Made by a program: the position numbers and the translations under genes. DNA of 64,000 bases from contig CP066697.1 in assembly GCA_016432625.1 (NCBI GenBank), positions 151,113-215,112 of the forward strand, written 5' to 3'. Source of the DNA: Candidatus Berkelbacteria bacterium. GTDB lineage: Bacteria > Patescibacteriota > UBA1384 > 2-12-FULL-50-11. How positions within the stretch are numbered: the first letter of the stretch is position 1; every line of letters starts with the position of its first letter. Shown here piece after piece: positions 5,455 to 57,751 of this stretch. Under the pieces are notes generated by a model. It was not told the origin of the DNA. It saw only the letters and a program-made list of their open reading frames with translations, and did no database searches.

Positions 5455-6170
5455 TAGCGCAAGAGATTTTGCCAGAGGTCTTCAATCGGGGCGACTTGTT
5501 CCTCGATCTGGTCTATCTGCTGAGTGAAGAGGAAGTTCTTCCAAAACTCGTTCAAGTCGAGCGTAAACAACGAGCTGTCGCGACGCGGCTCAACGTTGAA
5601 CTCCCCGGCGGCCTTGCGAGCGCAAAAGTCGCCGTAGATTTTAATATACGCGTCACGCATCGCGAGGATTCGTTTGGCGTACCCGACGGTGCTTTTGATC
5701 GGGCTGCCGGCTTCGTACAGGCGCACTGCGCCGCCGCCGCCGTTGTAAGCGATCAAGACCTTAGTAAGATTGCCGCCGTATTGGTCGATTAATTCTTTTA
5801 AGTGAAAAGTCCCCATTTGAATTGCCAAATCGGGGTTACCGATAAGCTGGTTGGCGTTGAATTTCGCTCCGGCTTCGGCGCCGTTAATTGTGGTATAGAC
5901 GCGCCTGGCGGTGGACGGAATAAACTGCGTCAAGCCAACAGCGCCAGCGCCTGAGCGAGCGTTTGGGTTCCAGGTGCTTTCAGCCATGATTTTGGCCGCC
6001 TCCAAGTGCACATCGACGCCGTATTCCTTGCTCCATTTGCAGAGCGAATCCTCGTACTTTAACGGGTAAGCAACGCTGGCGAAAAGTACCGGCCCGATGA
6101 CGTAAAGAATCACGCCCAAACCAAGTAGGGCTACAACCGACCAAAGCCACCATTTTATTGATCGCGCCAT
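5454..6170 (-). CDS. Lytic transglycosylase (SLT domain), membrane-anchored
   Basis: N-terminal TM helix. SLT catalytic region with AESTWNPNARSGAGAVGLTQFIPSTA (E...S-x-AGA-x-GLMQ-like). Confidence 0.8.
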   Translation of the reverse strand: MARSIKWWLWSVVALLGLGVILYVIGPVLFASVAYPLKYEDSLCKWSKEYGVDVHLEAAKIMAESTWNPNARSGAGAVGLTQFIPSTARRVYTTINGAEAGAKFNANQLIGNPDLAIQMGTFHLKELIDQYGGNLTKVLIAYNGGGGAVRLYEAGSPIKSTVGYAKRILAMRDAYIKIYGDFCARKAAGEFNVEPRRDSSLFTLDLNEFWKNFLFTQQIDQIEEQVAPIEDLWQNLLR

Positions 6171-6218
6171 TACTAGAAGTGTACCTGATGGGTAGTTTCG
6201 CCGCTACCGCGGGACGTT

Positions 6219-6540
6219 TTAGGCTTTTAATAGCGGATAAATATCAAAAGCGACTTCTTCATAGGGGTGAGCTACTTTTAATTTTGCAATTGCTTGAGGC
6301 AGGATTTCCTTATTAAGCTCAACCTCAATTCTCTCCTCCTCAACTTGCTCATAGTTTCCTGCCTTACCTATGGTTGGGCTAGAATCTTTGTTGCCTCTAA
6401 AACGTCCGGTACCCTTAGTGGAGAAAGAGCAAAAATCGTAATTACCAATTTTCCCCGCGCCAGCTTCGCCAAGTGCCTGTCGCACGACGTCAGCGTGACT
6501 TGTTGGCACAAAGACGACTAATTTGACGAACTCATCCATT
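6219..6540 (-). CDS. NIF3 C-terminal-domain-like small protein (DUF34-related)
   Basis: Motifs AGAGKIGNYDFCSFSTKGTGRFR and AHPYEEVAFDIYPL resemble the C-terminal half of Nif3/YqfO proteins. The ORF-track start at 6683 would overlap tRNA-Leu, so the ATG at 6538-6540 (MDEFVKL) abutting the tRNA was chosen. Confidence 0.5.
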
Positions 6541-6541
6541 G

Positions 6542-6625
6542 TGCGCGAGAGAGGACTTGAACCTCCACGGGATTGCTCCCACAGCCACCTCAAGGCTGCG
6601 TGTATACCAGTTTCACCACTCGCGC
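6542..6625 (-). tRNA. tRNA-Leu (anticodon GAG)
   Basis: Hand-folded: acceptor GCGCGAG/CTCGCGC, anticodon arm CAGCC-TTGAGGT-GGCTG, long variable arm, T-arm GGAGG-TTCAAGT-CCTCT, discriminator A. CCA not encoded. Confidence 0.85.
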
Positions 6626-6642
6626 TTGTAAAATACGAACCG

Positions 6643-6725
6643 TGCCGGAGAGAGGAGTTGAACCTCCATGCCCTTGCGGACACTACGATCTGAACGTAGC
6701 GCGTCTACCGTTTCGCCACTCCGGC
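6643..6725 (-). tRNA. tRNA-Leu (anticodon CAG)
   Basis: Acceptor GCCGGAG/CTCCGGC, anticodon arm CTACG-TTCAGAT-CGTAG, long variable arm, T-arm GGAGG-TTCAACT-CCTCT. Confidence 0.85.
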
Positions 6726-6776
6726 GTTCCGAGTAATTTTACCAGAGTTTCTCCTATTTGAGAGGCCTTAGAGGCG

Positions 6777-8090
6777 CTATTTGACGTACCAGTCGGCGAT
6801 TGACCGATAACGGTCTGAAGCGTTTTGGGCGAGCCAGGGCTTCTGAACGGCGATCGTGTCCTCGGCGATAAAACTTACCGACTCCTGCTTCAGAAATTTC
6901 GCAACGCCCTCTCGCTGCAACGCCTCGTGTAACGATTTTATCGCTGCTGTGCGCTCAGCGACATTAGTCAGCTGGCGCAGGGTATCGATTTGAACGTCGA
7001 TACCGTCATTATTGATGCCGGAAAAATTATTGCCCGGCGGTCGGATTTGAGAGGAGTGCCATAAGTAGGTTGGATCCATCTCGGCGCCGTAATCGATTCC
7101 CGTTAGCAAGGCCTGAAACTGCCGGCTCGGCCCGGCCTTGTCTTGGATTTCGTCCAGCGGTTTTAGCTCTAGGGTGACTTGGGCGCCGAGTGCCTGCCAG
7201 CGCTTAACGAGCTCCTCGGCCAGACCCTTATACGGTTCCTGGTCTGCGGCCGTGAGAGTAAATGGCGAATTTGCTACCGTCGATTCGTCAATCAACGCCC
7301 GACGCATCGCCCCGTCACGAAACGGCGACTTGTTAATGTTGAAAATGACGGCGTAATACTTTGACAACTCAAATGATTGCAGGTGATAGCCTTCCGGCAC
7401 TGTTAAGTTTTCGTTCTCGGCGCCGTCTACCTTACCCTTGTCCAGCGCTTGCTGGAGCAACGCTTTGTCGGCGTAGGTGTGGACGATAACTTTGTTCAAG
7501 TAAGGCCGAACCGCCCCCTCGCGCGGATTGCGACTGAAAATCGTTGTCTTGCCGGTCGCTTTATTAAGCTTGTATGGCCCGTAATCAAATAGTGGCTGCG
7601 TCAGCAGTAGGGGAATATTCGGATTGGCCTTAGTCGTTTTGATCGCAATTTCGTCGCCATCGGTCAGTTCTACAGAGGCAGGGCCAAGTAGCTCCAGACT
7701 ATTTTGCAATTCGGTAAGGATTTCGTTCTTACTTACTTCCTTCAAAAGCTTGAAGAAGTACTCGGTTTTTTCTGGATTGACGCGCCAATCTTGGACAAGC
7801 ACGTTTTCCAACTCGCCATCGTTATTAATAGTAAACAACCCAGTTTTTGTCAGACGCGTCGCAATTTGTTGGACGTCACGCTCAGTGCCGACGAGCCCTT
7901 CAACATAACTGCCACCGGCGGTGGCAGTGCCTTGATTCTGGGCAAACTGGCGGTACCAGAAAGTACCGCTAATAACGATCACTACGGCGAGTAGGGCCAG
8001 GATCACTTTTTCGTAATGGCTGATTATCTGCGTCACTCGCGCCGCGTATCGTTTTTGACGCGCAAAGAAATTGTCCATCGAAGATCGCAT
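6777..8090 (-). CDS. Extracellular solute-binding protein family-5-like (peptide/oligosaccharide ABC substrate-binding fold), N-terminal TM anchor
   Basis: 437 aa with an N-terminal hydrophobic anchor and central/C-terminal regions reminiscent of SBP_bac_5. Assignment by general resemblance only. Confidence 0.45.
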   Translation of the reverse strand: MRSSMDNFFARQKRYAARVTQIISHYEKVILALLAVVIVISGTFWYRQFAQNQGTATAGGSYVEGLVGTERDVQQIATRLTKTGLFTINNDGELENVLVQDWRVNPEKTEYFFKLLKEVSKNEILTELQNSLELLGPASVELTDGDEIAIKTTKANPNIPLLLTQPLFDYGPYKLNKATGKTTIFSRNPREGAVRPYLNKVIVHTYADKALLQQALDKGKVDGAENENLTVPEGYHLQSFELSKYYAVIFNINKSPFRDGAMRRALIDESTVANSPFTLTAADQEPYKGLAEELVKRWQALGAQVTLELKPLDEIQDKAGPSRQFQALLTGIDYGAEMDPTYLWHSSQIRPPGNNFSGINNDGIDVQIDTLRQLTNVAERTAAIKSLHEALQREGVAKFLKQESVSFIAEDTIAVQKPWLAQNASDRYRSIADWYVK

Positions 8091-8116: not shown

Positions 8117-8341
8117 TCATATCGACGGAATGAGCAACTGGGCAATCACTGCCAGGACAAAAACCGTGGCAAAAATTACAGAAGCTCGTAACAGCAATTT
8201 TTCAATACCTCGGCGACTCCGGTACGACATACCTTCTCCGCCAAAGGCCCCACCTAGACCGGTTCCCCGATGTTGCAGCAGTACGGCGATAACTAGCAGA
8301 AGTCCGGCAGCGATTTGGGCGACCTGTAAGAAACTGGTCAT
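8117..8341 (-). CDS. secG: Preprotein translocase subunit SecG
   Basis: 74 aa, two TM helices flanking the Gly-rich loop LLQHRGTGLGGAFGG typical of SecG. Confidence 0.75.
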   Translation of the reverse strand: MTSFLQVAQIAAGLLLVIAVLLQHRGTGLGGAFGGEGMSYRSRRGIEKLLLRASVIFATVFVLAVIAQLLIPSI

Positions 8342-8643: not shown

Positions 8644-9366
8644 ATGTCGATAGTCTCACAGCAAAAACGATCATCACTCGCCCCCACGGGGGCCACGACC
8701 AGTTCGGCGAATGGGCTAATCAGCCCGGCACTCGCCAATGCCAGTCTCCATACCTTGGAAACGCTCGGCCACAGACGGCTCCTGGAAACCAGGCGCGTCC
8801 AGTTCGATAACGTTATCGAAAGGCTTAAGGGGGACGGCCTGACTATGAGGGAGCTCAGAGAGCTGCTGCAGAACACATGCCGCGACATTCCTGACGGGTT
8901 GATCCTGTCTGGCGAAGAGTCGCTGCGCCATCGTCACGAAGAGTTGGGGGTGACGCTGACCTGCCGATCCGACGGCAGCGTCGATGTCTGCTGGAGCGTG
9001 TACAAGGGGCGATCCGACGTCCTTCGCTTACTGCTCACCAGCGACGATCAAGGCTTGGAGCTCGAGGAGCTCAGGTACAAGCCGGAAGAGTTTCAGATGC
9101 CAGGTCTGACAGCTCCAACTCGCCACTTGGAATGGCTGCTTCCAGTCTACGACTGGATAGCGGCCCACGACGTCAGGGGGAAGGACCACTTGGCCTGGAA
9201 ACAAGTCGAAGCGCTCTATGGGCAGACCATCCCGTTTGTCCGCCTTGACCGCAAACGCCACAAGACCCTCGAGGATCTCGGACGCATGCCGTCGATGTTC
9301 CAGCCATTACGGCAGGAATTCCAGCGGTTGAACGCGCTTGGATCCTTGATCCAGTTCCAAAGCTAG
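8644..9366 (+). CDS. Hypothetical protein (GC-rich ORF lying between tRNA-Cys and tRNA-Gly)
   Basis: 240-aa ORF with high apparent GC relative to neighbours. No recognisable domain. Confidence 0.45.
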   Translation: MSIVSQQKRSSLAPTGATTSSANGLISPALANASLHTLETLGHRRLLETRRVQFDNVIERLKGDGLTMRELRELLQNTCRDIPDGLILSGEESLRHRHEELGVTLTCRSDGSVDVCWSVYKGRSDVLRLLLTSDDQGLELEELRYKPEEFQMPGLTAPTRHLEWLLPVYDWIAAHDVRGKDHLAWKQVEALYGQTIPFVRLDRKRHKTLEDLGRMPSMFQPLRQEFQRLNALGSLIQFQS

Positions 9367-19351: not shown

Positions 19352-19957
19352 TTAGCGTTGCAGATTGCGGAGTTGCTCGTACAGATCACGTTCTTCGCGT
19401 GAGGGGCGCTTGGGGATTTCAATATGGATAACAACCGTCAAATCTCCCCGACCGCGGCGAGTTTGGGCGCCTTTGCCACGAAAACGAAAAGCCGCGCCTT
19501 CGGGTGTGCCGGGTGGAATCTTCAGCTCGATCTCATCGCCAAAATTGGTTTTGAAACGAACCGTGTCGCCAAGCACCGCTTGCGGGATCGAAACTGCCAA
19601 TTGAACCTGGACTTGAGAGAAGGCTGATTCGAACAAATCCTCAAAAATTGAGCCAAAACCTCCGCCGCCCTGACCACTAAAACTGCTGAAGTCGAAACCC
19701 CCAGCTTGACTCCCGAAACCGCTTTGGCTGCCAAAACCGGCTCCGGCCCGTGCCCCAGCGTGGCCGAACTGATCGTACTGGGCTCGTTTGTTTTTATCCC
19801 CCAGTACCTGGTAGGCCTCGTTTATTTCCTGGAACGCCGCCTTATCCCCACCTTTGTCGGGATGTAATTTGTGCGCTTTCGAACGGTAGGCCTTTTTAAT
19901 TTCGCCATCGCTGGCACCGCGGGGAACACCTAAAACTTCGTAAAAATCTCGAGCCAT
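19352..19957 (-). CDS. J-domain co-chaperone (DnaJ-like; J-domain plus Gly/Phe-rich region plus C-terminal domain, no zinc-finger)
   Basis: [35 protein letters not shown] with the HPD motif, then a GFGSQ-rich linker. Confidence 0.8.
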
Positions 19958-19982
19958 ATTTTCGATATTTTACCCTAAAAAT

Positions 19983-20000
19983 GTCAAGTTTGCTTTACAG
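19983..20000. promoter_or_regulatory. Copy of the 18-bp inverted repeat TGTCAAG-TTTG-CTTTACA (2 mismatches to TGTAAAG-N4-CTTTACA) in the divergent intergenic region between the J-domain gene and the ybjQ-like gene; overlaps a TTGACA -35-like hexamer (minus orientation) and sits just upstream of a TATAAT at 20001-20006
   Basis: Read directly: ...aaatgTCAAGtttgCTTTACAgagTATAATgaattcATG. Same half-sites as the dnaK promoter (26102-26119) and the XRE-Hsp20 gene promoter (51618-51635). Confidence 0.55.
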
Positions 20001-20014
20001 AGTATAATGAATTC

Positions 20015-20338
20015 ATGGATAAGGAAAATATTACAACCTCTTTTGAGCTACCGAATAAGAAAATTGTTAAAAATTTCGGCCTAGTCCGCGGCATAACCGT
20101 TCGCTCCCGATCGATTTTTGGGACAATCGGCGGCTCGCTGCAGACCATTCTTGGCGGCAATATCACCCTGTTTACCGAGCTGTGTGAGAAAACGCGCCAG
20201 GAAGCCTATGCCCTGATGGTCAAACACGCGGAAGAGATGGGCGCCAACGGCATTGTTATGGTTCGCTATGACGCCAACGAAGTTATGAGCGGTGTAACCG
20301 AAGTGCTCTGCTACGGCAGTGCAGTGGAGGTTGAATAA
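20015..20338 (+). CDS. YbjQ/UPF0145 family protein (heavy-metal-binding-like domain)
   Basis: 107 aa ending GANGIVMVRYDANEVMSGVTEVLCYGSAVEVE, the characteristic YbjQ C-terminal pattern. ATG only ~6 nt downstream of TATAAT, so possibly a leaderless transcript. Confidence 0.7.
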   Translation: MDKENITTSFELPNKKIVKNFGLVRGITVRSRSIFGTIGGSLQTILGGNITLFTELCEKTRQEAYALMVKHAEEMGANGIVMVRYDANEVMSGVTEVLCYGSAVEVE

Positions 20339-22593: not shown

Positions 22594-24000
22594 TTATTCT
22601 TTGAGACCCATCTCGGACCGTATATCGCTAATAAAAGTCTTCGCTTTCTCTTCAAGTATATTTTGATCGGGCCTGACACTTGCTAGGAACAACTCGAAAT
22701 ATTTTAGTGCCTTAACTAGGTCGCGCAACTTTTTATAGGCAATGTAGCCAAGCCAAAAATGCAGTTGATTCCTATCAGGATAAGTTTCAAGGAGATTCAA
22801 ACAAAACTGTTCAACCTCTTGGATGGTAAGCCATTCTTCGGAATACTCATGCTCAACAATTTTCCTCGAGGACTTATAAGCCTCGTCGTATTCCGATAAC
22901 CAATAATGCAAAAATGCATCGCTGTACCTCCACTCCTGGGCTCCATTAGCTAAGTTCTTCGCAAGCGCGATTTCTTGTTGCGCCGCCTTCGCATCACCTT
23001 CCTTGAATAGTTCCACGGCTCTTACTAGATGAAAACCGTACTGATTAGGGTAATAACTCTGTGCTCTTTTCGAAAACGTTGAGTACGACGCTAGGTCATC
23101 CTTCAGTAAAGACATTCGTGCTTTTAGCAAATAACTACCTGCCAATAATTGTTTGGCCTTGATCTTTACTTCCTCAATATTTGGAGGTAAATCATTTCTT
23201 TGAAAAAGCTTATCGTCAATTAGGCGCTCGTGGAGGGTTATTGCGAGGTTGACGTCACCAGATAAGAATGCAGCAATACCTACTATGTACTTTGCCGATA
23301 AATAAACAAAATCAGCGGTTAAGGCGAACCCTCTAAATCGGAATTCTTCTAACATCTCCACTTCTTTAGGTAGGGATCTTACAAAGTCGGCAGATAATTT
23401 AAACTGACTGTTTTTGTCTATCGGTGAGTGCACTACTAAACCACTTAAATCAATAAAAATCTTTTCCTTTTCTCCATCAGGACGTTTTTTAACGTCTCCG
23501 AAGACGAAATAGTGTCCATGGACTGTCTCATTTATTGTTCGCGCAATTTCATAGTTTTTTACTTTCTCGGCAATATGGTTGGGTACTTTTACTACTGTGA
23601 CTAACTCACTCAATCCATCTGCGACTAAGTTTTTTCTTACCTGGTCAAGAAAGTCCTTTTTAGCATCTATTTCCTCGAGGTTATCCTCGCTGTAAAGCGC
23701 GAAAACTAATCCAAGCTTCCCCTCGGGTATTTTTGGAAGCCACTTCCTTACTACTATCCAAGCAACTATCTCAATTAAGAGTAATACTACGAGGCCCCAT
23801 CTTAGATAACTGACTCCAAAAAGTTCTAAGAGGGGTTTATAGATAGCCGCAAATATAATGCCCGTTAACACTACCGTGACTAATAATCCGCGAAAACTTG
23901 CAAAGTTAATTCTGATGTATGACAAATAGGGTCGCAGTTTATCAATTGGCATCAGCCTATAAAGAAAGAGAGCTGATAGCTCTCTTTCTTGTTTCTCCAA
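22594..24000 (-). CDS. Hypothetical membrane protein: two N-terminal TM helices plus a large helical/TPR-like cytoplasmic domain
   Basis: 468 aa. TM segments at ~35-85. C-terminal helical repeats (…YWLSEYDEAYK…FWLGYIAYKKL…). AT-rich. Stop abuts the dnaK stop region. Confidence 0.5.
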   Translation of the reverse strand: MEKQERELSALFLYRLMPIDKLRPYLSYIRINFASFRGLLVTVVLTGIIFAAIYKPLLELFGVSYLRWGLVVLLLIEIVAWIVVRKWLPKIPEGKLGLVFALYSEDNLEEIDAKKDFLDQVRKNLVADGLSELVTVVKVPNHIAEKVKNYEIARTINETVHGHYFVFGDVKKRPDGEKEKIFIDLSGLVVHSPIDKNSQFKLSADFVRSLPKEVEMLEEFRFRGFALTADFVYLSAKYIVGIAAFLSGDVNLAITLHERLIDDKLFQRNDLPPNIEEVKIKAKQLLAGSYLLKARMSLLKDDLASYSTFSKRAQSYYPNQYGFHLVRAVELFKEGDAKAAQQEIALAKNLANGAQEWRYSDAFLHYWLSEYDEAYKSSRKIVEHEYSEEWLTIQEVEQFCLNLLETYPDRNQLHFWLGYIAYKKLRDLVKALKYFELFLASVRPDQNILEEKAKTFISDIRSEMGLKE

Positions 24001-26004
24001 TTAGTCTTTTTTGTCCCCGTCATCTTTTGGTTCTTCCGGCACATTTGTGTCCGGGGTGCCATCCGCCTTCGCCGAGGCTTCGTCGGATGAATCGTCTTTG
24101 GGGAGTTCTTCTTCCGGCTTCGGCTGTCCCTCCTGCGCTGAAGCTTCCTCCTTCGCAGATGCTTCGGAGGACGAGTCGGCGGGCGAGTCATACATCGCGG
24201 CGCCGACTTTTTGGAGGGCGGCACTCAATTTTTCCGCCTCCTCTTTGATTTTGTCTTTATCGTCGTTGTGGATGACGGCTTTGACGGCGGTAACGGCGTC
24301 TTCGACTTCGCGTTTGTCGTCCGGTTTGATCTTATCGCCCGCGTCTTTGAGGGTTTTTTCGCTCAAGTGAATAAGGTTTTCGGCGGCGTTTCGTTCTTCG
24401 ACCAGCTCTTTTTTCTTGGCGTCGTCGGCGGCGTGAGCCTCGGCCTCGGTTTTCATCTTTTCGATCTCTTCTTTGGATAGCCCACTCGAAGCCGTAATGG
24501 TGATGTGTTGTTCTTTGGAAGTGGCTTTGTCTTTGGCTTTGACGTTCAGAATTCCGTTTGCGTCGATGTCAAACGTCACCTCAACTTGCGGGACGCCGCG
24601 GGGAGCCGGTGGAATACCATCGAGATGGAACTTACCTAGCGTCCGGTTGTCGGAGGCCATTGGCCTTTCGCCTTGTAAGACGTGGATTTCCACAGATGGC
24701 TGGTTGTCGCTGGCCGTGGAAAACGTTTCCGTTTTTGAAGCGGGAATAGTGGTATTGCGCTCAATGAGCGGCGTCATTACTCCACCCAGAGTTTCGAGAC
24801 CCAAGGTTAGCGGGGTGACGTCGAGCAGAAGAATATCCTTAACTTCGCCTGATAAGACGCCGCCGTTAATGGCCGCGCCTAAAGCAACCGCTTCGTCGGG
24901 GTTAACGCCTTTCGATGGCTCTTTGCCAAAAACATCTTTAACAACTTGCTGAATCATCGGCATGCGGGTCATCCCACCGACCAAGATAACTTCGTCAATG
25001 TCAGATTTGGTGAGTTTGGCGTCTTTCAAAGCGGCTTCGCAGATGCCTCGGGTTTTCTTGATGAGGTCGCCAACTAAACTTTCCAATTTTGCGCGCGACA
25101 GATTCATCTGCAGGTTTTTTGGACCGTCAGCGTCAGCGGTAATAAACGGCAAGTTGATCTCGGCTTCCTGGGTTTGAGAGAGCTCGATCTTGGCTTTTTC
25201 AGCTGCTTCTTTGACCCGTTGCATAGCCATAGCGTCGCCAGTTAGATCGACACCCTCTTTGGCTTTGAATTCGTCGACGATCCAGTTCATCACTTGAATG
25301 TCGATGTCGTCTCCACCGAGGTGAGTATCACCGTTCGTCGAGAGCACTTCGAAGCTGGATTCGCCTTTGTCTTCGCCAATTTCGATGATGGTGATATCAA
25401 ATGTTCCACCACCAAAGTCGTAAACGGCGACTTTCTGGTCTTTTTTGTCTTCTTTGTTAATGCCGTAGGCGAGAGCCGCGGCGGTTGGTTCGTTGATAAT
25501 GCGCTTAACTTCGAGGCCAGCAATGGTGCCGGCGTCTTTGGTAGCCTGGCGCTGGGAGTCGTTAAAGTATGCCGGGACGGTAATAACAGCGCCGTCGACT
25601 TTTTCGCCGAGATAAGCCTCGGCATCAGCTTTGATTTTGGCCAGGATCATTGAGGAGATTTCTTGGGGGGTAGACTCGTTTTCGGCCATTTTGACCTTAA
25701 CGCCATCGCCGCTCTTTACAATTTTGTAAGGCATCAGTTTGATGTCGCGCTGAACTTCTTCGTCAGTGAAGCTACGACCCATTAAGCGTTTAACAGAGTA
25801 GATAGTATTTTCCGGATTGGTGACAGCTTGGCGCTTGGCGAGCGTGCCAACAAGGCGTTCGCCTTTTTTATTGACCGCGACGATGGACGGCACTAAGTTG
25901 CCGCCCTCAGCGGTTGGGATCATTTTGGCTTTACCGCTTTCGATGACGGCTGAAGCCGAGTTAGTTGTTCCCAGGTCAATTCCGATTATCTTAGACATTT
26001 GCAC
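24001..26004 (-). CDS. dnaK: Chaperone DnaK (Hsp70)
   Basis: [18 protein letters not shown], the substrate-binding domain, and an acidic/Lys-rich C-terminal tail. GTG start at 26004 (an ATG two codons in is possible). Confidence 0.95.
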
Positions 26005-26095
26005 CCCATTCTATGTCTGAGATATCCAAAACGGTGTTTTTGATAATCTTTCCCATTTTGAGTAAGCTCTCCTCCTTAATTAGTCTATGTCTAAA

Positions 26096-26127
26096 GAAAA
26101 TTGTAAAGTTTCCTTTACATTTGTCAA
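26096..26127 (-). promoter_or_regulatory. dnaK promoter: TTGACA(-35)-N16-TACAAT(-10), with the 18-bp inverted repeat TGTAAAG-GAAA-CTTTACA (26102..26119) occupying the spacer and -10
   Basis: Gene orientation: cATTGACAaaTGTAAAGgaaaCTTTACAATtttc. Perfect 7-bp arms. Not CIRCE (TTAGCACTC-N9-GAGTGCTAA) and not HAIR (CTTGAGT-N7-ACTCAAG). Confidence 0.6.
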
Positions 26128-26217
26128 TGGCGAAAGATGGCGTAGAGCGTTGAGTTTGAGAGGTGCTTATGAGAAAATGATGGCCGCTCGTAACCACGGG
26201 CAGCAATAGGAGCGGAA

Positions 26218-26967
26218 ATGACCCTTCGAGAAACTTTACAATCCAATCGCCAACCCGACGTCGCCCTGGCGGACGACGTCGCCTTCGCCGTGATCGACTC
26301 GATCCGCCCGTTGATGGGCGCTGAACCACCTCCGGCTCGCGTCGACGGCGACCAAAGCCAACGGATGCGCTCCGCCCGCCTGGCCTACTTCATGCTTCGA
26401 GAACGAAGCGCGCACCTCGACACCTGTTTGCGCGTCATCGGTTCGGAAGAATTTCCGGTCGATGTACTCATTGCCGACTTGAAGGATGCCGAAAAGCGAC
26501 TTCATGCTCGGGCTCACAACGAGAACCAGACACTTAGTTGGCTGGGTCTTGCCGCTGTCGATTTCGATACGGTACTGATAGATGGGAACCAGCACGTCGA
26601 CTTCGACAAAGTCGTTTGTTACGGTTCCGCGACGCAAGAACAAGCCTTCTTTGGCACGATCGCCGGCCTGATGCCGCGACTGGCGTCCGAGGACAACACA
26701 AGCTTCACTAGTCACCTAGCAAAGTCTCTGTGCGCGGCCACGCGCCAGAAGCTCTGCAACGACTGGAACGGTACTGAGCTTTGTCTTGATGCCACGGCGT
26801 TCGGCTTCGCGCTGGGAACACGCGACCTGTATAGGCAGGCACAGACCCTGGCGTTCGAAAACAAGGAGCCGCTGCAACTGGATCATTTCGGCCGAGCAAA
26901 AGGCTGGGAGTCTCTCGCGCTTTTCGCGAGCTATCCGACGATCCGCGCCGCTATCCTGCCCAAATAA
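26218..26967 (+). CDS. Hypothetical protein (GC-rich), inserted between grpE and dnaK on the opposite strand
   Basis: 249-aa ORF followed by a hairpin plus T-run at ~26985-27020. No recognisable domain. Confidence 0.5.
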   Translation: MTLRETLQSNRQPDVALADDVAFAVIDSIRPLMGAEPPPARVDGDQSQRMRSARLAYFMLRERSAHLDTCLRVIGSEEFPVDVLIADLKDAEKRLHARAHNENQTLSWLGLAAVDFDTVLIDGNQHVDFDKVVCYGSATQEQAFFGTIAGLMPRLASEDNTSFTSHLAKSLCAATRQKLCNDWNGTELCLDATAFGFALGTRDLYRQAQTLAFENKEPLQLDHFGRAKGWESLALFASYPTIRAAILPK

Positions 26968-27106
26968 GGCCATGCCCTGACTGAAAGCCCCTCCTCCCAC
27001 CATAGAGGCGGGGCTTTTCACTATCCAAAAAAGTGCTCTAGCAACTGGATTTTCCCACTTTTTAAGATATAATTCGCACACGAACCTATCAGTTCAGGAG
27101 GCAGCT

Positions 27107-27658
27107 ATGCAGAAATTCACCCCGCTTGGCGGACCAATGCTTCAAGGCATTGAGATGCTAGCACGACAACACGGCCTTCGCGGCCAGTTCAGTATTCTCC
27201 TTGCCGTGCGAACGCAGGAAATGATTGCGGACCACGACGAGAGATGCAGCGGCTGGTCAGTAATGGCTAGCGCCCGCAAAGACGGGAAGATACTCATTTA
27301 CCCATGGATGTGGGAAAGGTTTCTTGAAGAGGACGTCGCGACTGCGGTTGGCTGGATGGCCAATACGCTCGCCGAGGAAATCGGGCATCTCATCGATTAC
27401 GAGCGGTTTCCGGCCTGGACGGAAAGCTTGCTGGATTGGCGGTTTCTGCTGATTCGCAATCTCCGAGACCGGCTCGGGAAATCGATCCCGCGCCTACAGC
27501 CGTCGCTCGTCAAGCTCTACGAATGGGCTTACAGGCGCAGCTTCTTTGAGAAAAGAGCGAAGCGCTTCGCCGAGGATCATGAAGAGCAGTACTTCGCTGC
27601 TATCTGGCCTCACTTCCACTACTACAGGGAGGTCTATCTCAACTTGTCACGGGAATGA
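27107..27658 (+). CDS. Hypothetical protein (GC-rich), second gene of the grpE/dnaK-intervening pair
   Basis: 183-aa ORF with upstream TATAAT and GGAGG RBS 6 nt before the ATG. No recognisable domain. Confidence 0.5.
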   Translation: MQKFTPLGGPMLQGIEMLARQHGLRGQFSILLAVRTQEMIADHDERCSGWSVMASARKDGKILIYPWMWERFLEEDVATAVGWMANTLAEEIGHLIDYERFPAWTESLLDWRFLLIRNLRDRLGKSIPRLQPSLVKLYEWAYRRSFFEKRAKRFAEDHEEQYFAAIWPHFHYYREVYLNLSRE

Positions 27659-27681
27659 GCGTAAGCTTGTTCCCGTTTCCT

Positions 27682-28218
27682 TTACCCCTTTGAAACGCGG
27701 ACTTTGGCCGGTTTTATTACTTTGCCCTTAAGCATCCAGCCGGATTCAATTTCATCGATGACGGTTTCTGCTGGCAGGTCGCACGCTTCGTAGGAGATTG
27801 CTTCGTGCAAGTTATGATCGAAATGCGCCCCTTGGGTCGGAATGCGCGTCAGGCCGGCGTCGGCGACGATCGTTTCGAGCTGTTTTTCGATTTGGCGTAA
27901 ACCTTCAAAATAGGCGTGAATCTTTTGAAAAGCCTCTTCGCTTAAGGTTGTTTGGTCGTCGTCAAGTGAAATTGTCGGGGCGTGGGTTGAAGCGCGGTAG
28001 AAATTGTCCAGTACAGGGAAGAGTTTATGCAGCCAGTGGGCTAACGTCCGTTCCTCGAGCACGGCTCGGTCGTCGTGCATGCGCCGTTCTAGGTTAGAGT
28101 AATCCGCCGCCAAGCGTTTGCGACTGTTTTCGGCAGTTTCAAGTTTGGTCTTAATCTCGGCCAATTCTTTTTTGAGCTTATCGATTTCGTTGTCGTTTAA
28201 TTTCTTTTTAGGAGTCAT
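27682..28218 (-). CDS. grpE: Nucleotide exchange factor GrpE
   Basis: N-terminal coiled-coil (EIDKLKKELAEIKTKLE) and C-terminal FDHNLHEAISYE...GWMLKGKVIKPAKVRV, typical of GrpE. Confidence 0.85.
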   Translation of the reverse strand: MTPKKKLNDNEIDKLKKELAEIKTKLETAENSRKRLAADYSNLERRMHDDRAVLEERTLAHWLHKLFPVLDNFYRASTHAPTISLDDDQTTLSEEAFQKIHAYFEGLRQIEKQLETIVADAGLTRIPTQGAHFDHNLHEAISYEACDLPAETVIDEIESGWMLKGKVIKPAKVRVSKG

Positions 28219-50900: not shown

Positions 50901-51605
50901 CTACTTCTTCTTCACCTGAATCTTCGTGGTCTTCGGCTTAGCCGGTTCCACTTTCGGCGCCACTATCTTAAGCGTCCCGTTTTCGAGTTTGGCCTCAACC
51001 TTGTCTTCTTTGATCGGCGTGGCAAATCGAATTGAACGACTGAACTCACTGTGTTGCCACTCACGACGCACAACATTCTTGCCTTCTTTCTCATTTTCGT
51101 CGTGCTTTTTAGTGCCAGTGATAGTTAGTGTATCTTCCGTCATCTCGATCTGAACATCGTCTTCGGCGTAACCCGGAACCTGTAATTCGATTTCGTACTC
51201 TTTGTCGGTTTCATGAATATTCATGGCGCCGGCAACGGTGCCCAGTGCTCGCGACCAATCACCACGACCAAAATTACGGTTGACCATCTCGCTCATCTCT
51301 TCTTGCATTCGATCCATTGCCTGAAACGGACTCCATGGTGCTAATTGCATCTTCGACTGCTCACCTCCTTCCTGAATTTCGTTATCGGTTGCTTGCTGAA
51401 CAATGTTTATGCCTTCGATTAAATCCGGCAAATTACAGCGGAAAAATTCCATCAGTGAAATCAAAACTGGCGCGCTAGGCAGATACTCGCCACGTTCAAG
51501 CGAGATTATCGATTGGCGAGATACGTTTAATTCCCGAGCCAATTCTTCTTGGCTCAGATCTCGCTGGGTGCGTAACTGGCGTAGTAATAAACGGAATCGA
51601 GGCAT
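50901..51605 (-). CDS. Fusion protein: N-terminal XRE-family helix-turn-helix DNA-binding domain plus C-terminal Hsp20/alpha-crystallin (small heat-shock protein) domain; candidate novel heat-shock transcriptional repressor
   Basis: N-term LRQLRTQRDLSQEELARELNVSRQSIISLERGEYLPSAPVLISLMEFF (HTH_XRE). C-term ALGTVAGAMNIHETDKEYEIELQVPGYAEDDVQIEMTEDTLTITGTKKHDE...EWQHSEFSRSIRF...GTLKIVAPK (alpha-crystallin domain). Same operator in its own, dnaK and J-domain-gene promoters. Confidence 0.75.
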   Translation of the reverse strand: MPRFRLLLRQLRTQRDLSQEELARELNVSRQSIISLERGEYLPSAPVLISLMEFFRCNLPDLIEGINIVQQATDNEIQEGGEQSKMQLAPWSPFQAMDRMQEEMSEMVNRNFGRGDWSRALGTVAGAMNIHETDKEYEIELQVPGYAEDDVQIEMTEDTLTITGTKKHDENEKEGKNVVRREWQHSEFSRSIRFATPIKEDKVEAKLENGTLKIVAPKVEPAKPKTTKIQVKKK

Positions 51606-51611
51606 TTATAC

Positions 51612-51650
51612 GCCTAATGTAAAGTAAACTTTACATAGCGTCAAGGGAAA
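51612..51650 (-). promoter_or_regulatory. Promoter of the XRE-Hsp20 gene: TTGACG(-35)-N17-TACATT(-10), with the 18-bp inverted repeat TGTAAAG-TTTA-CTTTACA (51618..51635) over the spacer and -10
   Basis: Gene orientation: cCTTGACGctaTGTAAAGtttaCTTTACATTaggcgtataaATG. Same architecture as the dnaK promoter. Confidence 0.6.
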
Positions 51651-57076: not shown

Positions 57077-57751
57077 TCAGTTAACGACGTCAAGCCTCGT
57101 GATCCGGAGCTTGCCATCGACCTTGCCGAAGCGAAGGTCTAGACCGAACGACATGCCAGGGCGTGGCCCTTTGGCATCGCGCGAGGTCATCTTGACCTTG
57201 ACACCGTGTTTGGTGAGCTCGTAGGCCTCGAAGTTCTTAATGCCCTCCTCGTTGCCGTTCAAGCTGCCTCGCTCCTTGAGAAACTCAATTCGTTCGGCTA
57301 GATATTCCGGCCAAGCCGGATGATCTGGTCCCTTGACGATCGCAGTCGGGTCGCTACCCGATTGGGCTGTCTCGACGAAGTACTTCGCGAGCGCCAACCG
57401 GGAATCGAGCAGCTTTCCCGAGGCCTCAGCGACGAGCGGCAGCTTGCCGCCGGCCGAGACTTTCAGGCTGAGCTCGAAGCCCGCTTTGTCGAACTTTTGG
57501 GCGTCGTTAACGGCTCGGAAGTTGGTTAGACCATCGGCATCGGAGCGATAGAGGGTAACGTTGCCGTCGGTGCAAAAGGCTTTGAAGTCCTTGAGCGCCT
57601 GTTGCAACCCCACCTGGTTCCGGCCGTCGGTCGTTACCATGAGTAGGGCTTCGGCTGGGTCCTTCTGGGCCCGGGCGACGAAGTCGTCGAGTTGGTCGGC
57701 GCTTGTCAGACACGCAGTTGCAAGCAAAAGAAGTGCGAAAAGATGTTTCAT
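57077..57751 (-). CDS. Secreted hypothetical protein
   Basis: Signal peptide MKHLFALLLLATACLTSA. 224 aa. Confidence 0.5.
   Translation of the reverse strand: MKHLFALLLLATACLTSADQLDDFVARAQKDPAEALLMVTTDGRNQVGLQQALKDFKAFCTDGNVTLYRSDADGLTNFRAVNDAQKFDKAGFELSLKVSAGGKLPLVAEASGKLLDSRLALAKYFVETAQSGSDPTAIVKGPDHPAWPEYLAERIEFLKERGSLNGNEEGIKNFEAYELTKHGVKVKMTSRDAKGPRPGMSFGLDLRFGKVDGKLRITRLDVVN

Follow-up and report, generated by a model that had tools for sequence, protein, structure and literature searches.

Two genes of the Candidatus Berkelbacteria contig CP066697.1 lie, in opposite orientation, between the chaperone genes grpE and dnaK, and the question raised by this locus is whether they belong to the chaperone system or simply share its address. 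The genes, referred to here as ORF1 and ORF2 (for open reading frame), are located in a 64,000-nucleotide (nt) stretch (contig positions 151,113 to 215,112), the whole of which is called the window, and both are annotated as hypothetical proteins in the source metagenome-assembled genome. A preliminary description of the window placed two plus-strand ORFs of 249 and 183 amino acids (aa) between minus-strand grpE and dnaK, with coordinates that prove to be exact, and proposed that the pair is either a lineage-specific chaperone-associated module or an insertion. Comparison with related genomes favors an insertion, and the grpE-dnaK spacer is probably a small variable islet of the replacement type, filled with lineage-specific orphan genes, a swap-prone hotspot and not an add-on to the chaperone operon. 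The features of the gap and its flanks are as follows.

24001-25998, minus strand: dnaK, first of the two conserved flanks (Pfam HSP70, E = 1.9e-250; NCBIfam DnaK); the mechanically called ORF opens at GTG 26004, and the start is probably the ATG at 25998.
26208-26212, plus strand: ORF1 ribosome-binding site AGGAG, 5 nt ahead of the ATG.
26218-26967, plus strand: ORF1, 249 aa, ATG start, coding for an acidic protein (isoelectric point 5.4) that has no hydrophobic segment and belongs to a very rare orphan family of ~245 aa.
26983-27018, plus strand: hairpin 3' of ORF1 (-23.9 kcal/mol, z-score -3.5) followed by UUUUCAC, likely a terminator separating ORF1 from ORF2.
27068-27085, plus strand: -10 box TATAAT and leader TCGCACACGAAC of ORF2, with a perfect TATAAT at 27068-27073.
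27096-27101, plus strand: ORF2 ribosome-binding site AGGAGG, 5 nt ahead of the ATG.
27107-27658, plus strand: ORF2, 183 aa, ATG start, coding for a soluble protein; E-type member of a Berkelbacteria family with [H/E]ExxH and ExxA motifs.
27649-27676, no strand assigned: hairpin overlapping the ORF2 stop codon, between the convergent ORF2 and grpE stops (plus strand -19.2 kcal/mol, z-score -4.5; minus strand -14.3 kcal/mol), a candidate bidirectional terminator.
27682-28218, minus strand: grpE, the other conserved flank (Pfam GrpE, E = 6e-36).

This arrangement is consistent with two independent transcription units. The preliminary description credited the pair with promoter and ribosome-binding signals of its own and a terminator, which holds for both ribosome-binding sites, the hairpins, and the ORF2 TATAAT, but ORF2 lacks a good -35 box, the only promoter candidate for ORF1 is weak, and a promoter scan of the region flagged none on the plus strand. 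The genes are also GC-rich (guanine plus cytosine) as described (58.4% for ORF1 and 55.4% for ORF2, compared to 50.3% for the window), but mildly so, with three more window genes at 56 to 59%. No paralogues of either gene were found elsewhere in the window. The 3' end of ORF2 and the ORF2/grpE hairpin together give a below-threshold Rfam match to the Bradyrhizobiaceae small RNA BjrC68 (27616-27684, plus strand; 26.7 bits, the gathering score being 39; E = 4e-4) that is probably driven by the terminator-like hairpin.

Contigs of related genomes were fetched through their GrpE homologues, and homology of their gaps was assessed by blastp, tblastn, and hidden Markov model (HMM) searches in about 12 lineages, mostly represented by short metagenomic contigs. 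The order RuvC, YebC, MBL hydrolase, and ComEC, followed by a divergent grpE, is conserved in the relatives, but the content between grpE and dnaK is not, as is seen when the lineages are listed with the identity of their GrpE to that of the window.

L001, GrpE 50%: empty gap, with grpE and dnaK adjacent and 112 nt apart.
L011/L012, GrpE 60%: empty gap, with grpE and dnaK adjacent and 73 nt apart.
L003, GrpE 89%: ORF2 homologue (189 aa, minus strand); the contig ends short of dnaK.
L006, GrpE 63%: ORF2 homologue (178 aa, minus strand) and a 440-nt spacer.
L007/L008, GrpE 62%: ORF2 homologue (189 aa, minus strand).
L016, GrpE 56%: two tandem ORF2 paralogues (160 and 213 aa, minus strand).
L013/L014, GrpE 51%: ORF1 homologue P0126 (247 aa, minus strand) and a 95-aa membrane protein.
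L009, GrpE 59%: unrelated genes of 135 aa and 336 aa (minus strand).
L010, GrpE 59%: unrelated genes of 192 aa (plus strand) and 180 aa (minus strand).
L015, GrpE 58%: three small genes, two with weak PP-binding (acyl-carrier) matches; the contig ends short of dnaK.
L005, GrpE 74%: unrelated partial gene (minus strand), at which the contig ends.
P0007 contig, GrpE 76%: a 335-aa gene (minus strand).

The adjacency of the two chaperone genes in L001 and L011/L012 indicates that an ancestrally adjacent pair is interrupted in the window, which bears out the insertion that had been proposed; the accompanying statement that grpE and dnaK adjoin in most bacteria is overstated, as grpE of Escherichia coli is unlinked to dnaKJ. 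Where the gap is filled, the genes are nearly all antisense to the chaperone genes. Homologues of ORF2 occupy the same gap in the same orientation in four other lineages, with E values of 4e-5 in L003 (blastp), 1.7e-20 in L006, and 8e-7 in L007/L008, and of 2e-9 and 6e-9 by profile for the tandem paralogues of L016. Both genes are lineage-specific, as suggested at the outset, and their homologues are found at this locus and not at unrelated ones. Reading the pair as a module does not survive the comparison, with ORF2-like genes present without ORF1 in L006, L007, and L016, and an ORF1-like gene present without ORF2 in L013; either family can be present alone, so that no obligate pair exists, and a distant homology between ORF1 and ORF2 themselves is rejected (hhalign probability 0.4%). 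Nor does a chaperone association fit well, with unrelated gap genes in L005, L009, L010, and L015 and an empty gap elsewhere, and a permissive, swap-prone site fits better. No homology to ORF1 or ORF2 was found for the gap proteins of these four lineages or for the 95-aa protein of L013, and scans of JGI metagenome contigs and IMG/VR for GrpE and the ORF2 family found nothing. The two PP-binding-like genes of L015 (5971-6240 and 6373-6627, minus strand) are tandem genes of 84 to 89 aa located 3' of grpE, with 39% mutual identity.

Divergence within the gap is extreme. Between the window and L003, its closest relative, GrpE is 89% identical, YebC 87%, ComEC 81%, and MBL hydrolase 80%, whereas the ORF2 homologues share only 27%, and all ORF2 pairs are 25 to 33% identical irrespective of phylogenetic distance. 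The ORF2 proteins form two subtypes named for the first residue of their HExxH-type motif, E-type (window and L006) and H-type (L003 and L007), each with mutual E values of ~1e-22 and with cross-type values of 1e-4 to 5e-8. The closest relative of the window carries the other subtype, since L003 is H-type, and the window has its E-type gene in common with the far more distant L006. At the DNA level the window and L003 are ~85% identical in grpE, but this identity collapses right after the grpE stop and is regained only over the ribosome-binding site, leader, and -10 box of ORF2 (TATAATTCGCACACGAAC at 27068-27085 in the window; TACAATTCGCGCACGAAC at 9021-9038, minus strand, in L003). L009 has a copy of the -10 box and leader (TATAATGCGCCCACGAAC at 8137-8154, minus strand) that stands ahead of the unrelated 336-aa gene, and it seems that genes are exchanged behind a promoter and leader that stay in place. 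The GC content of both ORF1-family genes and of the E-type ORF2 genes exceeds that of their host loci by 5 to 8 points, which is not the case for the H-type genes.

Replacement-type flexible genomic islets flanked by core genes are described for streamlined free-living bacteria, and the grpE-dnaK gap is an islet of this type, with a fixed position between core genes, content that differs among relatives, mostly hypothetical occupants, and identity that falls off abruptly at the edges, and without an integrase, tRNA, or flanking repeats. It is unlike those islets in that it is tiny (one to three genes), lies inside a chaperone gene pair, has occupants almost always antisense to the flanks, hosts two families that recur across deep divergence, and keeps a -10 box and leader ahead of unrelated genes. 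We infer that the turnover of gap genes results from loss and from homologous recombination through the flanking core genes, such that cassettes are probably replaced at a fixed site, at times behind the retained -10 box and leader. Throughout, dnaK retains its ancestral operator-controlled promoter and grpE its own, and chaperone regulation was therefore not rewired by the insertion; gap genes and chaperones are presumably without functional coupling. The locus offers a tractable example of hypothetical-gene turnover in Candidate Phyla Radiation genomes, in the form of a tiny hotspot between two very conserved genes.

Several points weigh against the variable islet. The sample of lineages is small, and resident genes might have diverged to an extreme degree without any exchange of cassettes. 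The recurrence of the ORF1 and ORF2 families at one site over GrpE identities of 51 to 63% might mean that they are functionally linked to the chaperone genes, and a non-random 13-nt copy of dnaK operator sequence within ORF1 (see below) is unexplained by an islet model.

Insertion of a mobile element, whether an insertion sequence, an integrative element, or a prophage remnant, was considered and rejected. There are no integrase or transposase genes in the window gap and no tRNA at it, the insert is not bracketed by any long repeat (of the repeats, only the 13-nt operator copy is strong), and neither ORF gave a tblastn match in phage and plasmid collections, nor were relatives present in IMG/VR. 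The gap genes might alternatively evolve fast through conflict, in phage defense, toxin-immunity, or interaction with a host or partner, with the zincin-like ORF2 protein as effector. Such a role would suit the extreme divergence, the exchange of two motif subtypes between lineages, the turnover of gene content at a fixed hotspot between core genes, and the orphan status of all occupants, none of which has a Pfam family above the curated cutoff. We consider it unlikely, however, as PADLOC matched none of 12 proteins (ORF1, ORF2, and ten gap proteins from relatives), relatives are lacking among the phage, plasmid, and IMG/VR sequences searched, no toxin, immunity, nuclease, or ATPase partner is recognized, and the genes are single as often as paired.

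Either ORF1 or both ORFs could instead be chance reading frames or decaying remnants in a GC-rich spacer, and here the evidence differs between the two. A leave-one-out codon model trained on the other long ORFs of the window gives ORF2 a typical sense-over-antisense margin of 0.186 nat per codon, whereas that of ORF1 (0.073) is the lowest among the 58 long ORFs compared, although its sense frame is nonetheless the best scoring. The opposite strand holds long mirror ORFs, single-sequence AlphaFold2 confidence is very low for both proteins (predicted local distance difference test [pLDDT] scores of 33 for ORF1 and 47 for ORF2), and a word-index search of 5.8e9 proteins returned only self-matches for both, an empty result that is a limit of sensitivity and not true ORFan status. 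Three ORF1 homologues did emerge when 1.84 billion representative proteins were scanned exhaustively with HMMER, namely P0125 (244 aa, E = 5e-9), P0126 (247 aa, 1.4e-8), and P0127 (248 aa, 1e-4), all of which align with ORF1 end to end with 25 invariant columns, and one of which, P0126, is the gene between grpE and dnaK in L013. Because end-to-end homologues exist, ORF1 and ORF2 are confirmed at the sequence level as real protein-coding genes. Their ribosome-binding sites at 5-nt spacing, the typical codon signal of ORF2, and the motif residues kept by its homologues in four other lineages also argue against non-coding frames, which are largely refuted and highly improbable.

The ORF1 family is apparently very rare, lineage-specific, and separate from the ORF2 family. 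Its profile has no match in Pfam or the PDB, and no catalytic motif was recognized among its invariant columns. Three candidates that scored higher than these homologues, P0123 (E = 2e-36), P0124, and P0128, are spurious, being tandem-repeat proteins whose scores are summed from many ~2-bit stretches. Two undescribed families without Pfam, NCBIfam, or PDB relatives prove to be real and positionally anchored.

The ORF2 family, which appears to be specific to Berkelbacteria, is more informative as to function. Residues A19, G23, L24, E91, H94, Y142, E148, A151, and Y162 are invariant in its six members, and two elements among them define the motif.

27374-27388, plus strand: codons of E90-E91-I-G-H94, the counterpart of HExxH, in which Glu stands in for the first His and E91 corresponds to the catalytic Glu; a predicted helix (residues 77-95, low-confidence model) ends with this motif.
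27548-27550, plus strand: codon of the invariant E148 (E-x-x-A), 54 residues past H94 and inside a predicted helix (residues 146-156, low-confidence model).

The first His of HExxH is present in four of the six members, L007 (LAHEVCHLID), L003 (IAHEVCHQMD), and both L016 paralogues (ITHEVKHQID and LAHEFDHAFY), and is replaced by Glu in the window protein (LAEEIGHLID) and in L006 (LAEEIWHLID). In gluzincins, zinc is held by both His residues of HExxH plus a downstream Glu, and E148 is a candidate third metal ligand. The zinc ligands of the gluzincin BepA are His-136, His-140, and Glu-201, the last of these 61 residues after His-140, a distance similar to that between H94 and E148. The preliminary description found no recognizable domains in either gene, and this stands at curated thresholds (Pfam, NCBIfam, PHROGs, and PADLOC), but overlooks the degenerate HExxH-type motif of ORF2; the profile and structure predictions that it advised gave sub-threshold metallopeptidase matches for ORF2, none for ORF1, and the low-confidence models noted above.

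These sub-threshold matches include SprT-like (E = 0.016), DUF2268 (0.018), and DUF6782 (0.02) families in Pfam, all on the HExxH helix and spanning only 23 to 37 residues, a metallo-protease family in PHROGs on the same helix (phrog_87, E = 0.032), and Peptidase_M48 (E = 0.13), which covers both the HExxH and ExxA motifs. In PDB profile searches the best match is a snake-venom metalloproteinase (E = 0.087), followed by the M48 entry 3c37 (0.39). Every one of these weak matches is to metallopeptidases and is aligned on the HExxH helix. Among known proteins, the family resembles in sequence the minigluzincins, M48 peptidases (HtpX and BepA), and M56 peptidases in its predicted HExxH-type helix followed by an invariant Glu in ExxA, in its small size, and in the helix and strand-like segments ahead of the motif helix, and the L016 paralogues add an M48-like hydrophobic stretch between the two motifs. 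Unlike those proteins, it has no significant sequence or profile match, has EExxH in the window and L006, and lacks membrane segments or a hydrophobic stretch in the window protein. The SprT-like (Wss1-type), DUF2268, and DUF6782 small zincins are similar in the HExxH helix, but ORF2 has no zinc ribbon or other accessory domain. With a slight preference over other interpretations, ORF2 may be viewed as a minimal zincin-like (gluzincin-like) protein or a derivative of one.

A number of results count against this assignment. Curated metallopeptidase families in Pfam, PHROGs, and PDB profiles gave the ORF2 family no match at curated cutoffs, and the PDB profile search returned nothing significant. 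Alignment of the family profile with an approximate E. coli HtpX sequence (hhalign) covers 18 columns at the HExxH helix only, with a probability of 8%, and does not reach the ExxA motif. The ORF2 AlphaFold2 model is unusable at its pLDDT, and a Foldseek search of the PDB with it gave only noise (E of at least 1.7). A metallopeptidase fold and activity would have to be read from a short motif and the sub-threshold matches, and Glu at the position of the first metal-binding His in the E-type proteins may abolish or alter catalysis. The family is nonetheless a candidate for a new minimal zincin, one in which Glu naturally replaces His at a metal-ligand position in some members. The PDB profile search also gave a weak CopG-like match on the N-terminal helix (E = 0.19). 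The L016 paralogues (5611-6093 and 6177-6818, minus strand) are 28% identical to each other and have intact HExxH motifs, and their hydrophobic stretch between HExxH and ExxA is possibly membrane spanning.

The regulation of dnaK provides a second line of argument, and two sequence elements near the start of ORF1 are of note here.

26100-26127, minus strand: dnaK promoter TTGACA-16-TACAAT (11 of 12 matches), enclosing the perfect palindrome TGTAAAG-GAAA-CTTTACA at 26102-26119.
26230-26242, plus strand: perfect 13-nt inverted copy GAAACTTTACAAT in ORF1 codons 5 to 9, reproducing the spacer and right half-site of the operator and the -10 region of the dnaK promoter (26100-26112).

The preliminary description reported the promoter with its palindromic operator correctly, but took it as a consequence of the split and grpE as uncoupled by the insertion. 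The promoter and palindrome are directly upstream of dnaK in every relative examined (L001, L006 to L012, L013, and L016). Copies of the palindrome lie at 3192-3209 in L001, 9481-9498 and 15018-15035 in L006, 2321-2338 in L007, 8209-8226 in L009, 8045-8062 in L010, and 5084-5101 in L011. Because they also precede dnaK where grpE adjoins it, separate transcription of dnaK predates the insertion, and the predicted promoter and operator are ancestral; dnaK does not owe its separate regulation to the loss of adjacency with grpE.

TGTAAAG-N4-CTTTACA occurs in three copies in the window compared to 0.14 expected. One is that at dnaK, a second (19982-19999) lies between a DnaJ-like gene (19352-19957, minus strand) and a ybjQ-like gene (20015-20338, plus strand), and the third (51618-51635) is 12 nt upstream of a minus-strand gene (50901-51605) coding for a 234-aa fusion of an N-terminal XRE-type helix-turn-helix (HTH) domain (HTH_3, E = 1e-14) with a C-terminal Hsp20/alpha-crystallin domain (E = 8e-21). 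No copy was found ahead of grpE in the window. The palindrome is a candidate heat-shock operator of Berkelbacteria, and the HTH-Hsp20 protein a candidate autoregulated, temperature-sensing repressor of a dnaK/dnaJ regulon, such that dnaK, the dnaJ/ybjQ region, and the HTH-Hsp20 gene have the look of a heat-shock regulon under its own control, perhaps a more interesting lead than the gap genes. Heat-shock operons of the hrcA-grpE-dnaK-dnaJ type carry the CIRCE operator, and the Berkelbacteria locus is similar in that grpE precedes dnaK on the same strand and the palindromic operator overlaps the promoter, but differs in the dnaK promoter being present even where grpE is adjacent and in the absence of a palindrome ahead of grpE. 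The palindrome itself matches neither CIRCE (TTAGCACTC-N9-GAGTGCTAA) nor HAIR (CTTGAGT-N7-ACTCAAG). Literature searches on a Berkelbacteria heat-shock regulon, HTH-Hsp20 regulators, and genes inserted between grpE and dnaK found nothing relevant.

The 13-nt copy in ORF1 sits 117 nt from the original, and none of 2,000 random regions has as good a match to the dnaK promoter; the ORF1 homologue of L013 lacks the copy. It could be an auxiliary repressor site or an insertion scar. Also near the dnaK promoter is a 21-codon upstream ORF (25991-26056, minus strand) that follows an AAGGAGG site, begins MGKII, and has a stop overlapping dnaK codons 2 and 3 (counted from ATG 25998). Its first five residues are those of the DnaK N terminus in L013, which suggests a ~60-nt insertion or duplication at the dnaK 5' end, with possible translational coupling.

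An alternative to the variable islet is a chaperone-linked stress module, in which ORF2-type zincins act in the heat-shock response with ORF1 as an accessory partner. By analogy, the zincin might be an HtpX-like quality-control protease, or might cleave the repressor that binds TGTAAAG-N4-CTTTACA; in the ImmA/ImmR and IrrE/DdrO systems a zincin cleaves an XRE-type repressor. The presence of the ORF2 family at the same chaperone locus in five lineages is compatible with this, as is the start codon of the L007 homologue only 88 nt from the dnaK operator, and the window codes for an XRE-type HTH-Hsp20 fusion with the palindrome in its own upstream region. The hydrophobic stretch between HExxH and ExxA in the L016 paralogues resembles the topology of HtpX, and ORF1 contains the 13-nt copy of the operator half-site and -10 region. 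However, relatives keep the same operator with an empty gap (L001 and L011) or unrelated gap genes (L009 and L010), and the gap genes are therefore not required for the regulon. ORF2 of the window is more than 1 kb from the operator and has its own -10 box and a terminator upstream, and 27% identity, compared to 80 to 89% for its neighbors, would be unusual in a housekeeping stress protease. The M48 match and HtpX alignment described above are poor, and no ORF2-family member has a match to Peptidase_M78 (ImmA/IrrE) at E values up to 10. There is no HTH gene adjacent to ORF2 in the window gap, the XRE-Hsp20 gene being ~24 kb away. No evidence for a chaperone-linked function or a new mechanism was found, and a stress module of this kind is doubtful.

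More speculative still is a view of the gap as an expression site, in which a resident antisense promoter and leader (TATAAT-TCGCACACGAAC) beside the heat-shock-controlled dnaK promoter would drive interchangeable cassettes. The commonest cassette, coding for the [H/E]ExxH protein, would then supply a stress-activated protease cleaving the palindrome-bound XRE-Hsp20 repressor, with the 13-nt copy as an auxiliary repressor site. This is very unlikely, but if true would represent an IrrE/DdrO-like switch controlling a heat-shock regulon of Candidate Phyla Radiation bacteria that had not been described before.

Three further features of the surroundings are of note. A small HTH_3/HTH_31 gene (114 to 118 aa) is present in the block upstream of grpE in L005 (214-567), L015 (2299-2655), L016 (2390-2743), and the P0007 contig (3531-3875), on the minus strand in each; that of the P0007 contig is directly divergent from grpE, and in the window yebC and the MBL hydrolase gene have nothing of this kind between them. 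Two other window ORFs, 8644-9366 (plus strand) and 57077-57751 (minus strand), have a GC content of ~0.585, a GC content at third codon positions above 0.71, and no Pfam match, and are unrelated to ORF1 and ORF2, such that high-GC orphan genes seem to be scattered across this genome. The segment 22039-24000 (minus strand), which follows dnaK immediately, the stop and start meeting at 24000/24001, codes for a 468-aa protein with only weak tetratricopeptide repeat matches and a 163-aa protein without a Pfam match; its genes are unusually GC-poor (0.40 to 0.42, compared to 0.50), L009 has dnaJ directly after dnaK, and this side of dnaK may hold a second variable segment.

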